Shown here: piece by piece, positions 38,480-42,921 of the stretch
How the letters are laid out: every line of letters starts with the position of its first letter
How positions within the stretch are numbered: position 1 is the first letter of the stretch
Origin: Escherichia phage vB_Eco_BCPEco_001
Strand: one strand, 5' to 3'
Length of the DNA: 64,000 bases
Sequence record: PV295200.1
Program-made: the position numbers and the translations under genes
The notes under the pieces: model-generated
What the model was told of the DNA's origin: nothing
Databases searched by the model: none
The model's input: only the letters and a program-made list of their open reading frames with translations

Positions 38480-38743
38480 ATGTTTAAAGTATATGGTTAT
38501 GATAGCAACATCCATAAATGTGTGTATTGCGATAATGCAAAACGTCTTTTGACCGTGAAGAAACAGCCGTTTGAATTTATCAATATTATGCCGGAAAAAG
38601 GTGTTTTTGATGATGAGAAAATCGCTGAGCTTCTGACTAAACTAGGTCGTGATACTCAAATCGGCTTAACAATGCCTCAGGTATTTGCTCCTGATGGAAG
38701 TCATATTGGTGGATTTGACCAATTGCGGGAATACTTTAAATGA
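38480..38743 (+). CDS. nrdC: thioredoxin/glutaredoxin NrdC
   Basis: 87 aa; MFKVYGYDSNIHKCVYCDNAKRLL with CVYC redox motif, matches T4 NrdC from memory. Confidence 0.85.
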   Translation: MFKVYGYDSNIHKCVYCDNAKRLLTVKKQPFEFINIMPEKGVFDDEKIAELLTKLGRDTQIGLTMPQVFAPDGSHIGGFDQLREYFK

Positions 38744-38957: not shown

Positions 38958-39128
38958 ATGATTTACGATATTAGTGTATCAAGAACTCCATCAATGGTTA
39001 CTATTCCAGCTGAAGAATTAGATCGTCTTCATAAAATTGAAGAACTTCTTTGGGAAATTGAATGTGACCTGCCATCAGGATTAGAATCCTGGGTTGATTA
39101 TGAAGAACTTAATAAGCTTCGGGGTTAA
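38958..39128 (+). CDS. hypothetical small protein
   Basis: 56 aa from the ATG (MIYDISVSRTP...); the track start at 38934 is a TTG. Confidence 0.4.
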   Translation: MIYDISVSRTPSMVTIPAEELDRLHKIEELLWEIECDLPSGLESWVDYEELNKLRG

Positions 39129-39250: not shown

Positions 39251-39736
39251 ATGATTACAGTAGATAAGTGGTTTAGAATTAATCGTGCTGATACAGGGCT
39301 GTGTAATTACTGGCCGGAACTTAGTGCAGGTACTGTCTTTAAAGTTCGTGAACTTGCAAAAGAATGCGAAGATGATATAGAACCTGATACTGGAATTATT
39401 GAAATTGAACTTTCCGACGGAAAGATTATTAACATCTATGATAAGCCAATTACATACTGGTGTTTGTGGAATACTGAATCCGTTGAAAATGGCGAAATCG
39501 AGGAAGTTGTAGAGCGAACTAATCAAGTTGTTCAGAAGCCTAAAGCCGCTTTTCAAGGTGAACGTATTTCATACGCATTAGCTAAATTAGCTGCGCAAGA
39601 AAATAACGATGGCTATGAAGGTAACCTGATGCAAGCTGCCGCAGAGTACATTGAATGGCTTGAAACTCAAATTTCTTTTTCTGACCAAATGATTCGGCAA
39701 TATAAGCGATTGCATCAAATGTTTTACAATACTTGA
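39251..39736 (+). CDS. pin: Pin-like protein (position and size of T4 pin, Lon protease inhibitor)
   Basis: 161 aa from the first in-frame ATG; sits between nrdC and 49 as pin does in T4; no motif-level confirmation. Confidence 0.45.
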   Translation: MITVDKWFRINRADTGLCNYWPELSAGTVFKVRELAKECEDDIEPDTGIIEIELSDGKIINIYDKPITYWCLWNTESVENGEIEEVVERTNQVVQKPKAAFQGERISYALAKLAAQENNDGYEGNLMQAAAEYIEWLETQISFSDQMIRQYKRLHQMFYNT

Positions 39737-39771
39737 AAAAACTCAAAATTCTTTTTCTGACAGGACATTTT

Positions 39772-39948
39772 AATGAAAACCGAATTGGTTTATACTGAAA
39801 AGTTAAATGGCGGTAAGGTTTGGAAACTTTTTATTAAAGGACATTCTACGGACCCTCATATGACCACTTGCGTAGGAACCTATTCTCGTCCTACTAAAAA
39901 GATGATTCGACAGTATAAACGATTGAATCAAATGTTTTACAATACTTA
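39772..39948 (+). CDS. hypothetical small protein sharing its C-terminal 15 aa with the upstream Pin-like protein
   Basis: 58 aa; C-terminus MIRQYKRLNQMFYNT versus Pin-like MIRQYKRLHQMFYNT; lies between an about 43-bp direct repeat. Confidence 0.35.
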
Positions 39949-39988
39949 AATAATAAATACCCTTATCTATTTAAGGTAAGGGTTTATT

Positions 39989-40462
39989 ATGTTATTGACT
40001 GGCAAATTATATAAAGAAGAAAAACAGAAATTTTATGATGCACAAAACGGTAAATGCTTAATTTGCCAACGTGAATTAAATCCTGATGTTCAAGCTAATC
40101 ACCTCGATCATGACCATGAATTAAATGGACCAAAAGCAGGAAAGGTACGTGGATTGCTTTGTAATCTCTGCAATGCTGCAGAAGGTCAAATGAAGCACAA
40201 ATTTAATCGTTCTGGCTTAAAGGGACAAGGTGTTGATTATCTTGAATGGTTAGAAAATTTACTTACTTACTTAAAATCCGATTACACCCAAAATAATATT
40301 CACCCTAACTTTGTTGGAGATAAATCAAAGGAATTTTCTCGTTTAGGAAAAGAGGAAATGATGGCTGAGATGCTTCAAAGAGGATTTGAATATAATGAAT
40401 CTGACACTAAAACACAATTAATAGCTTCATTTAAGAAGCAGCTTAGAAAGAGTTTAAAATGA
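39989..40462 (+). CDS. 49: recombination endonuclease VII (Holliday junction resolvase)
   Basis: 157 aa; MLLTGKLYKEEKQKFYDAQNGKCLICQRELNPDVQANHLDHDHE matches T4 gp49 from memory; zinc-binding Cys. Confidence 0.9.
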   Translation: MLLTGKLYKEEKQKFYDAQNGKCLICQRELNPDVQANHLDHDHELNGPKAGKVRGLLCNLCNAAEGQMKHKFNRSGLKGQGVDYLEWLENLLTYLKSDYTQNNIHPNFVGDKSKEFSRLGKEEMMAEMLQRGFEYNESDTKTQLIASFKKQLRKSLK

Positions 40463-42276
40463 CAATTGAAAAAGAAATTGAAGGATTGATTCATAAAACT
40501 AATAAAGACCTTTTGAACGAGAATGCTAATAAAGATTCTCGTGTTTTTCCAACTCAACGGGACCTTATGGCTGGTATTGTGTCTAAGCACATTGCCAAAA
40601 ATATGGTCCCGTCTTTTATTATGAAAGCGCATGAAAGCGGAATTATTCATTTCCATGATATTGATTATTCCCCTGCTCTTCCATTTACTAATTGCTGTTT
40701 AGTAGATTTAAAAGGAATGCTTGAGAACGGATTTAAGCTCGGTAATGCACAGATTGAAACTCCTAAATCAATCGGTGTTGCTACTGCAATTATGGCACAA
40801 ATTACTGCGCAAGTTGCTTCCCATCAATATGGCGGAACGACTTTTGCGAATGTAGATAAAGTACTTTCTCCTTATGTTAAACGCACCTATGCAAAACATA
40901 TCGAGGACGCAGAAAAATGGCAAATCGCTGATGCACTGAATTATGCTCAATCTAAAACAGAAAAAGATGTATACGATGCATTCCAAGCTTATGAATATGA
41001 AGTAAATACTCTCTTTAGTTCAAACGGACAAACGCCTTTTGTAACAATTACATTTGGTACGGGAACTGACTGGACTGAACGAATGATTCAGAAAGCAATT
41101 CTGAAAAATCGTATTAAAGGTCTTGGTCGTGATGGGATAACTCCTATTTTCCCTAAGCTTGTTATGTTTGTTGAAGAAGGTGTTAATCTTTATAAAGACG
41201 ATCCGAACTATGATATTAAGCAGCTTGCTCTAGAGTGTGCAAGCAAAAGAATGTATCCTGATATTATTTCAGCTAAGAACAATAAAGCTATCACTGGTTC
41301 ATCTATTCCTGTTTCTCCAATGGGTTGCCGTAGTTTCTTGAGCGTATGGAAAGATTCGACCGGTAATGAAATTCTTGATGGACGTAATAATCTTGGTGTT
41401 GTAACACTGAATCTTCCTCGCATCGCGTTAGATTCTTATATTGGAACACAGTTCAATGAACAGAAATTTGTTGAATTATTCAATGAACGAATGGATTTAT
41501 GTTTTGAAGCTTTGATGTGTAGAATTAGTTCCTTAAAAGGAGTTAAAGCGACTGTTGCTCCTATTCTTTACCAAGAAGGTGCATTCGGGGTTCGTCTTAA
41601 ACCTGATGACGATATAATTGAGTTATTTAAAAATGGTAGAAGTTCAGTGTCCCTAGGATACATTGGTATTCACGAATTGAATATTCTTGTCGGTCGTGAT
41701 ATTGGACGAGAAATTTTAACTAAAATGAATGCTCATCTTAAACAGTGGACTGAAAGAACCGGATTTGCTTTTAGTTTATATTCGACTCCTGCTGAAAACC
41801 TTTGTTATCGCTTCTGTAAACTCGATACAGAAAAATATGGAAGTGTAAAAGATGTTACCGATAAAGGTTGGTACACTAACAGTTTCCATGTTTCAGTAGA
41901 AGAAAATATTACTCCGTTTGAAAAGATTTCCCGCGAAGCACCATATCATTTCATTGCGACAGGTGGTCACATTTCTTATGTTGAACTTCCTGATATGAAA
42001 AATAACTTAAAAGGTCTTGAGGCCGTGTGGGATTATGCTGCACAACATTTAGATTATTTTGGTGTTAATATGCCAGTAGATAAATGTTTTACATGCGGAA
42101 GTACCCATGAAATGACTCCTACTGAAAACGGATTTGTTTGTTCTATTTGTGGAGAAACTGATCCTAAAAAGATGAATACCATAAGAAGAACATGCGGCTA
42201 TCTTGGAACTCCTAGCGTTGTTCCATGGAATTTAGGTAAAATGAAAGAAATGGTAAAACGAGTAAAACATGCATAG
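40459..42276 (+). CDS. nrdD: anaerobic ribonucleoside-triphosphate reductase NrdD (intronless)
   Basis: 605 aa continuous ORF; C-terminal glycyl-radical region RRTCGYLG and zinc ribbon CFTCGS...CSICG. Confidence 0.9.
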   Translation: MTIEKEIEGLIHKTNKDLLNENANKDSRVFPTQRDLMAGIVSKHIAKNMVPSFIMKAHESGIIHFHDIDYSPALPFTNCCLVDLKGMLENGFKLGNAQIETPKSIGVATAIMAQITAQVASHQYGGTTFANVDKVLSPYVKRTYAKHIEDAEKWQIADALNYAQSKTEKDVYDAFQAYEYEVNTLFSSNGQTPFVTITFGTGTDWTERMIQKAILKNRIKGLGRDGITPIFPKLVMFVEEGVNLYKDDPNYDIKQLALECASKRMYPDIISAKNNKAITGSSIPVSPMGCRSFLSVWKDSTGNEILDGRNNLGVVTLNLPRIALDSYIGTQFNEQKFVELFNERMDLCFEALMCRISSLKGVKATVAPILYQEGAFGVRLKPDDDIIELFKNGRSSVSLGYIGIHELNILVGRDIGREILTKMNAHLKQWTERTGFAFSLYSTPAENLCYRFCKLDTEKYGSVKDVTDKGWYTNSFHVSVEENITPFEKISREAPYHFIATGGHISYVELPDMKNNLKGLEAVWDYAAQHLDYFGVNMPVDKCFTCGSTHEMTPTENGFVCSICGETDPKKMNTIRRTCGYLGTPSVVPWNLGKMKEMVKRVKHA

Positions 42277-42288
42277 GGTTAAACACCA

Positions 42289-42921
42289 ATGAATTATGAC
42301 AGAATCTATTCAAATCTAGTTAATTCTGCTGAACACCCATCTAAGCCCCGTCAAACTAAAGCCGGGTATGAACTTCATCATATAATTCCAAGAAGCATGG
42401 GTGGTCCAGATGATTTAGACAACTTAGTATTTTTAACTTATAAGGCCCACTATACTGCTCATCATTTATTGGCTAAAATATATGGTGGAAAGATGTATGA
42501 TGCATATTGGATAATGAGTAATAGTAAGCATAGAAAAGTTACTTCTTCACAATACGCGTATGCAAAAGCTAAGAAATTTGAAAATCAGCGTGGCGCAAAA
42601 AGAAGCGATAAAACTAAGAAGCTAATGAGCATAGCTAGGTCTAAAGTAACTCTTCCTGATGATTTTGGAAAAAGGATATCTGATGGGCTAACAGGAAGAA
42701 CTTTGTCTACTAGTCATAAAGAGCATATCAAAAATAGTTCTAGAAATCGCTTTAACACCAAAACGGTTATTGGCTATTCACCAGACGGAAATACAATAGA
42801 ACTAACTGGAGCAACTGAAATAAGAAATGCAGGATTTTTTCATTCTGCTGTTTATAAATGTTGCAAAGGAATTCAATCTATTCATAAGGGATATACTTGG
42901 AAATATAAAGATGAATTATGA
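42289..42921 (+). CDS. HNH homing endonuclease, free-standing between nrdD and nrdG
   Basis: 210 aa; HNH core GYELHHIIPRSMGGPDDLDNLVFLTYKAHYTAHH; first 7 residues MNYDRIY identical to the NrdG N-terminus; 3' end overlaps the nrdG start by 11 nt. Confidence 0.65.
   Translation: MNYDRIYSNLVNSAEHPSKPRQTKAGYELHHIIPRSMGGPDDLDNLVFLTYKAHYTAHHLLAKIYGGKMYDAYWIMSNSKHRKVTSSQYAYAKAKKFENQRGAKRSDKTKKLMSIARSKVTLPDDFGKRISDGLTGRTLSTSHKEHIKNSSRNRFNTKTVIGYSPDGNTIELTGATEIRNAGFFHSAVYKCCKGIQSIHKGYTWKYKDEL

Follow-up and report, generated by a model that had tools for sequence, protein, structure and literature searches.

Two neighbouring genes of a T4-like phage that end in almost the same fifteen codons raise a simple question: which of them owns the shared end, and how did the other come by it? 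The case arises in a 64,000-nucleotide stretch of Escherichia phage vB_Eco_BCPEco_001 (sequence record PV295200.1), hereafter the window, whose source phage is T4-like (Tequatrovirus). On its + strand, nrdC is followed by small ORFs of the 49.3-49.1 region, pin, a 58-codon ORF, gene 49, nrdD and an HNH gene (Table 1). An earlier note on this DNA had described a direct repeat that duplicates the 3' end of pin and flanks the 58-codon ORF, and had offered two readings, a small cassette inserted within the pin 3' end or a partial tandem duplication.

A split duplication between pin and gene 49

The 46-mer ATGATTCGGCAATATAAGCGATTGCATCAAATGTTTTACAATACTT has one exact occurrence in the window, at 39689-39734, and a second copy with exactly 4 mismatches at 39902-39947; in 100 shuffles, no match of the 46-mer with 3 or fewer mismatches was found. 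The repeat with four mismatches is real and not a product of chance, but its first copy lies 17 nt to the left of where the earlier note had put it (39706-39750), and the second had been placed at 39901-39945. Nor does the repeat flank the small ORF, since its second copy forms the 3' end of the ORF itself. Extended to the stop codons, the two copies (B and B') encode the pin tail MIRQYKRLHQMFYNT and the ORF tail MIRQYKRLNQMFYNT. Of the four nucleotide mismatches, one replaces His by Asn and the other three are synonymous (CGG/CGA, CAA/CAG, AAG/AAA); the ORF and its shared tail are confirmed, with 14 rather than all 15 residues identical.

A second direct repeat, absent from the earlier description, links segments A and A' (22/23 nt identical; none in 100 shuffles, 0 expected by chance). 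The overall layout is pin…A-CAA-B(stop)-AAAA-A'-X-B'(stop), in which the duplicated unit A+B amounts to ~76 nt and its second copy is split by 140 nt (39762-39901) holding the body of the ORF. Two direct copies with their segments in unchanged order, and a single novel join in the carriers, are what a partial tandem duplication or an unequal crossover leaves behind, and the second of the two earlier readings, a partial duplication by recombination, is borne out to this extent by A-B being followed by A'…B'. Segment A' aligns to the pin 3' end of phages UFV10 and OE5505, …CTGACCGAGCRTTTTAATG, and in the pin frame still reads …SDRTF(stop).

Table 1. Features of the pin-gene 49 locus, in window coordinates
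Feature	Position	Strand	Basis or remark
nrdC	38480-38743	+	
pin (PinA, T4-type 161-aa form)	39251-39736	+	PF10465, phrog_2167; colinear with T4 pin
Repeat A, within pin (codons ...ETQISFSD)	39663-39685	+	23 nt, 1 mismatch to A'
Repeat B, final 15 codons of pin and stop (MIRQYKRLHQMFYNT, stop)	39689-39736	+	Repeat comparison
A-run AAAAAA, novel join of B end and A' start (duplication or unequal-crossover junction)	39736-39741	+	
A' and remnant of ancestral pin 3' end (…TQNSFSDRTF, stop)	39739-39772	+	Now non-coding leader of DUF7279
Shine-Dalgarno-like AGGA, 7 nt 5' of DUF7279 ATG	39762-39765	+	Putative function
DUF7279 gene (58 aa; RB69ORF087c family)	39773-39949	+	PF23945, phrog_3272, dN/dS
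Repeat B', native C-terminal 15 codons and stop of DUF7279 (MIRQYKRLNQMFYNT, stop)	39902-39949	+	
AATAAATA, putative late promoter 5' of gene 49	39952-39959	+	1 mismatch to T4 consensus TATAAATA
Stem-loop enclosing gene 49 Shine-Dalgarno; terminator-like	39959-39983	+	10-pair stem
Gene 49, recombination endonuclease VII; right edge of variable locus	39989-40462	+	PF02945, PF09124, phrog_423
nrdD	40459-42276	+	605 aa

The leader of gene 49 bounds this locus on the right. A late promoter is annotated in phage ASO78A at the place homologous to that of the putative promoter of the window, and the gene 49 hairpin (-16.3 kcal/mol, z -4.5) is annotated as a terminator in OE5505. This arrangement of hairpin and late promoter is conserved in all haplotypes described below and in Mosigvirus, and the hairpin fits the classical view of T4 that the ribosome-binding site of gene 49 is masked in long early transcripts. 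Among known RNA elements, only ohsC was matched in 39500-40100; the match covers the same hairpin, stays below threshold (30.3 bits, gathering score 50) and was taken as chance.

Three observations concern the surroundings. A 56-aa ORF 5' of 49.1 (38958-39125) matches phrog_3402, 'antitoxin from a toxin-antitoxin system' (E 6e-40); nrdD of the window is uninterrupted (no group I intron), whereas T4 nrdD is annotated as two joined pieces; and a 210-aa HNH-type endonuclease ORF lies 3' of nrdD (42289-42921).

The small gene and the composition of Pin

The 58-codon ORF belongs to the DUF7279 family (56.9 bits against PF23945, cutoff 24.5; E 6.8e-32 against phrog_3272, positions 1-58 of 59). All eight diverged homologues that were compared, from three genera, are intact at 58-61 aa, with dN/dS of 0.09-0.34 (Nei-Gojobori), and 23 columns are invariant across 10 clusters. 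Four genera, Tequatrovirus, Mosigvirus, Dhakavirus and Gaprivervirus, carry the gene between pin and gene 49: intact homologues are found 5' of gene 49 in the Tequatrovirus phages UFV10, OE5505, KIT03, NiC89 and JK45, in the Mosigvirus RB69 (RB69ORF087c), in the Dhakavirus phages JS10 and UGJNEcP4 and in the Gaprivervirus VR7, and the position is the same in UFV10, OE5505, KIT03, JK45, RB69, UGJNEcP4, JS10 and VR7. Judged by the conservation of its sequence, the ORF is a genuine conserved gene and an old resident of the locus. An exhaustive profile search returned only ~3-4 true clusters at 50% identity, so that the family is confined to T-even-like phages. The literature search found no paper that names it.

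The most conserved part of the protein is its C-terminal RPTKKMIRQ(Y/F)KR(L/F)HRxFY, and this tail is kept in all members of the family. In the AF2 model (pLDDT 79.5), three strands precede a C-terminal helix spanning residues 42-56 (…MIRQYKRLHRMFYNT); the protein is basic (pI ~10, net charge +8), its model has no Foldseek match in the PDB with E < 0.1, and it has no sequence relative there. The window ORF resembles its relatives (phrog_3272, RB69ORF087c, pVOG VOG5760) in being full-length and of the same length, in lying before gene 49 and in carrying the conserved RPTKKMIRQYKRLHRxFY helix. It differs from them in being uncoupled from pin and preceded by a pin remnant.

Pin of the window is a typical member of its own family over most of its length. 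It matches PF10465 (Inhibitor_I24) with 164.2 bits (cutoff 27, E 2e-48, aa 4-141) and phrog_2167 with E 2e-66 (aa 1-146 of the 146-position profile), and it is 96-98% identical to T4-type Pins. Residues 1-146 make up the Pin family domain and residues 147-161 a tail derived from DUF7279; in profile searches, residues 146-161 match phrog_3272 positions 43-58. Since Pin family profiles end at about residue 146, since the outgroup Pins (JK45, RB69, UGJNEcP4, JS10, VR7 and mar005P1) end in …RRLS(stop) or …SDEAF(stop) (…SDxAF, stop) without any tail, and since the outgroup DUF7279 copies carry the tail that those Pins lack, the tail is native to DUF7279 and foreign to Pin. It had been attributed to the 3' end of pin; the ownership runs the other way, pin having gained the tail through a 137-nt deletion.

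T4 PinA, the protein of biochemical work on Lon (UniProt P07068, the form used in PMC8835725), has been reported to bind and inhibit the host Lon protease (Hilliard et al., 1998, as cited in PMC8835725), an activity known for the T4 protein only. The comparison shows this protein to be a chimera, its final 14-15 residues being those of another gene. The window gene is its 161-aa orthologue, with the same length, the same C-terminal tail and a place between 49.1 and gene 49. However, T4 pin directly precedes the gene 49 leader, whereas in the window a 213-nt segment made of the pin-end remnant and DUF7279 lies between them. The AF2 model of Pin is poor (pLDDT 66.7, and 50-55 in the tail) and displays only a continuous C-terminal helix over residues 122-159. 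Pin is acidic, with a pI of 4.3-4.5 and a net charge of -12 to -15.

The capture of this tail was not confined to the T4 lineage. In the Mosigvirus RB69, a 137-aa Pin is followed by DUF7279 (locus L021, 543-1145), while in the Mosigvirus ZQ3 (MW630116; locus L020, 552-977) and in a metagenome contig (locus L016, 1501-1926) a 141-aa Pin ends in …LERR/FHRDFYNVY. In this fusion, pin is in frame with the last 9 DUF7279 codons, through a deletion between two ACGTTT hexamers of the RB69-type layout. The Mosigvirus fusion is independent of the T4-type fusion, and pin thus captured the tail at least twice. In mar005P1, the downstream DUF7279 is wholly lost.

Other rearrangements surround pin in related phages. 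A second DUF7279 paralogue (MQVKLLY…RPTKRQLRKAKRSHRNFY), which also has the tail, lies directly 5' of pin in Mosigvirus and in JK45-like phages, at 192-362 of the JK45 locus (L007), ~306-476 of mar005P1 (L008), 425-541 of RB69 (L021) and 1501-2076 of L017 and L018. It is unannotated in mar005P1, is annotated in RB69 from an internal start only, a stop preceding it in that frame, and is fused to the N-terminus of pin in two metagenome contigs (P0037, 191 aa). In the Dhakavirus JS10 (L005, 429-904), the C-terminal half of Pin is a separate 57-aa ORF that precedes a 100-aa ORF resembling the N-terminal half of Pin (hhalign probability 96.5%). This arrangement suggests a permuted or split pin and may point to more duplication and deletion at the locus. 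The ORF in the corresponding place of VR7 (L006, 460-905) looks unrelated.

Four haplotypes and a probable route to the window's layout

The 1.24-kb pin-49 interval matches 690 phage records, nearly all from Tequatrovirus and its relatives, with a best identity of 98.2%, and these records fall into coverage classes of 100%, 96%, 87% and 80%. Base-level alignment and genome annotations define four haplotypes in Tequatrovirus. In haplotype (a), found in UFV10 and OE5505, a 148-aa Pin ends in …SFSDRAF(stop), its stop overlapping the DUF7279 start in TAATG; this is the layout of the other genera, and (a) is therefore taken as ancestral. In haplotype (b), that of T4 and T2, a 137-nt deletion joins …CTGACCGA to ATGATTC… and places pin in frame with the last 14 DUF7279 codons, the two genes being offset by 2 nt and 137 being congruent to 2 modulo 3. 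In haplotype (c), represented by ESh17, DUF7279 is wholly deleted between GTTTTAAT and GTTTTACAAT. Finally, haplotype (d), that of the window, has the fused T4-type pin, AAAA, 37 nt from the very end of an (a)-type pin and an intact DUF7279. As rough estimates from evenly spaced samples of ranked match lists, (d) counts ~115-120 records, (a) 70-90, (b) 200-240 and (c) 50-70; both putative parental alleles, (a) and (b), are common among Tequatrovirus genomes.

Alignment to related phages shows the segment between the repeats as an indel when compared with T4, T2, RB68 and AR1, as the earlier note had envisaged. The same note had held that its reading would fall if the arrangement were universal and the small ORF carried a protein-level signal; the signal is clear, but the arrangement is not universal.

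Haplotype (d) includes the classical phage RB33, and 115 records are at least 95% identical to A'+X. Its junction was matched as a single piece in RB33, PYPS2T, AV119 and others. The join ACTTGAAAAAACTCAAAATTC is identical in five (d) genomes (the window, ASO78A, AV119, RB33 and SG1) and was absent from haplotypes (a), (b) and (c) in the alignment. These five genomes carry different X alleles, the X segment of SG1 being (a)-like. One junction despite different X alleles indicates that illegitimate recombination took place a single time and that the flanks were later exchanged by ordinary homologous recombination. Haplotypes (b) and (d) also share the end-points of the fusion and the Q in …HQMFYNT, so that the fusion happened once in Tequatrovirus. 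The X allele that the main (d) group carries (…GHSTDPH…) was not found unchanged in any (a)-type genome, the sampled (a) X segments being 89-93% identical to it.

We consider it probable that the repeat is the scar of recombination at the pin-DUF7279-gene 49 locus, through a deletion-fusion and then an unequal crossover. The starting point is the ancestral 148-aa pin (…SDRAF, stop) whose stop overlaps the DUF7279 start, as still seen in (a). As the alignments show, the 137-nt deletion in the T4/T2 lineage took out the pin stop and the first 43 DUF7279 codons, so that pin codon 147 continues in frame into the 14 terminal codons of DUF7279, giving the 161-aa PinA of T4. No microhomology is visible at the ends of this Tequatrovirus deletion. 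Next, an unequal illegitimate crossover within a short A-run, between (b)- and (a)-type genomes, would have joined (b) just past the pin stop (…ACTTGAAAA/TAATAA) to (a) at a point 37 nt before its pin stop (…GGCTTGA/AACTCAAA). The product would be pin(A-B)-AAAA-A'-DUF7279(X-B'), in which an intact DUF7279 is regained and a split duplication of 76 nt is left. Haplotypes (a) and (b) do not differ in the sequence after B, so that either of them may have been the left parent at the junction. The 137-nt deletion and the crossover may have occurred in either order, with crossover after fusion the simplest route.

Freed from its overlap with pin, DUF7279 would then have acquired a leader with a Shine-Dalgarno-like AGGA or AAGG. 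Bases -13 to -8 of its start read CCGAGC in all sampled (a) genomes and CAGGAC or CAAGGC in (d), the other (d) allele having AAGG at the Shine-Dalgarno-like site. With either (d) variant, a Shine-Dalgarno-like purine block stands 7 nt from the ATG, whereas the remaining 23 nt of A' match A at all positions but 1. No (a)-type genome with an AGGACA or AAGGCA leader was found among GenBank phages (best single-piece match 90.7%), nor in IMG/VR, which holds almost no relatives (1 match to (d)). We infer that the leader change may compensate for the lost translational coupling.

The duplicated segments, B/B' (48 nt) and A/A' (23 nt), would in turn be substrates for phage homologous recombination. 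Homology shorter than 50 bp suffices for recombination in T4 (PMC2839356), and the repeats should therefore let (d) revert: exchange between B and B' is predicted to restore the T4 form with loss of 213 nt, and exchange between A and A' an ancestral-like form with loss of 76 nt. Short-patch exchange between repeat copies seems to occur. The window DUF7279 has N52 and Q53 (39923-39931) where the family almost invariably has H and R, and its ending LNQMFYNT is that of the Pin tail of phage SG1. An exact copy of the protein was absent from a collection of 15 billion proteins, and the best DNA match is 97.8%. Conversion of B' in a short patch by a B allele would be the likeliest cause of these two residues.

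An alternative order of events, which we judge unlikely, places a 213-nt tandem duplication of [A-X-B] in (a) first, followed by the 137-nt deletion in copy 1, which would yield (d), and then by recombination between B and B', which would yield (b). Sequence logic allows it, as this last exchange in (d) would give exactly the T4 arrangement and that between A and A' an (a)-like one, and both the single fusion event shared by (b) and (d) and the ambiguity of the left parent are compatible with it. However, it requires a pin-A-X-B-A-X-B intermediate, of which none was seen (1 of 265 records had two X matches), and it takes three steps to T4 instead of one. Moreover, the 3' region of the window pin has T4-specific variants (GCCGCAGAGTACATT) and not those of the (a)/(c) type, although later homologous exchange could explain this.

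The first suggestion of the earlier note, an inserted small cassette, can be spelled out as a mobile or regulatory element (for example of PeSL type or borne by a homing endonuclease) that consists of A'-X-B' and entered the 3' end of a T4-type pin with duplication of its target; it is largely refuted, and we hold it to be very improbable. The segment is indeed an indel relative to T4 bounded by direct repeats, an HNH endonuclease gene lies 2.3 kb downstream, and T4-type phages shuffle small ORFs, present in some relatives and absent from others, between repeated PeSL motifs (PMC2839356, PMC4122927), including in the plastic early region near nrdD, which is listed as PeSL-associated (PMC2839356) and in which the window locus lies. 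However, the repeats of the window are coding sequence (A, B and B' are not intergenic) and contain neither promoter nor stem-loop motifs: the + strand of 39600-39990 shows no sigma-70-like site, in or beside A, B, A' and B', and the only stem-loop, at 39959-39983, is single-copy and outside the repeats. The 213-nt segment encodes DUF7279 and no endonuclease, integrase or transposase, as an autonomous mobile element would. An insertion also reverses the direction of events, since the supposed incomer is an old conserved gene that sits at the same place, next to a tail-less pin, in four genera of the Tevenvirinae, and is thus a resident. Finally, the inserted DNA includes a piece of pin (A'), as unequal crossover between homologous genomes predicts. 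A chimeric assembly from a mixed (a)+(b) population, which the resemblance of the layout to two concatenated alleles might suggest, is hardly credible, and neither is chance similarity, given that 0 of 100 shuffles gave either repeat and that the identical junction recurs in ~115 independently sequenced genomes from many laboratories, RB33 included.

The preferred route, deletion-fusion and then unequal crossover, has familiar counterparts in the microhomology-driven or illegitimate deletions and tandem duplications of T-even phages and in unequal crossovers of Lepore and anti-Lepore type. As in these systems, an in-frame fusion arises by deletion between neighbours and a reciprocal-type product carries a partial duplication, and the junctions lie at very short homologies (the A-run here, AAT/GTTTTA in (c) and ACGTTT in Mosigvirus). 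In contrast to them, the two recombining genes are not paralogues, and the crossover behind (d) would have joined non-allelic positions of two alleles of one locus.

Consequences for Pin and its neighbour

As a scar of recombination, the repeat of the window is nothing unusual: it marks one of the four alleles at a plastic early-gene locus, in phages well known for both illegitimate and homologous recombination. More than 100 public genomes already contain its layout, without comment. As for annotation, some genomes lack an entry for DUF7279 or give it a wrong start, and no gene should be called on the remnant A'.

A physical partnership between Pin and DUF7279 is plausible in view of their contrast in charge, their adjacency and the overlap of stop and start. 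A bolder proposal, to which we give rather little weight, is that the basic C-terminal helix of DUF7279 (RPTKKMIRQYKRLHRxFY) would be a module working with the acidic Pin, perhaps through contact with Pin or with Lon, and that the 148-aa Pin and DUF7279 would form a native two-component Lon inhibitor. If this were true, selection would favour keeping the helix when DUF7279 is lost, which would explain the independent captures in T4 and ZQ3; the T4 PinA that has been studied would be a two-gene chimera, and haplotype (d) would have the module twice.

Studies of PinA-Lon binding are concerned in any case, as the tail of the protein is foreign and missing from many natural Pins. Many relatives make a 148-aa Pin and a separate basic protein of 58 aa, and T4 has otherwise lost DUF7279. 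With the recurrent fusion in RB69-like phages, the role of the tail becomes a testable question.
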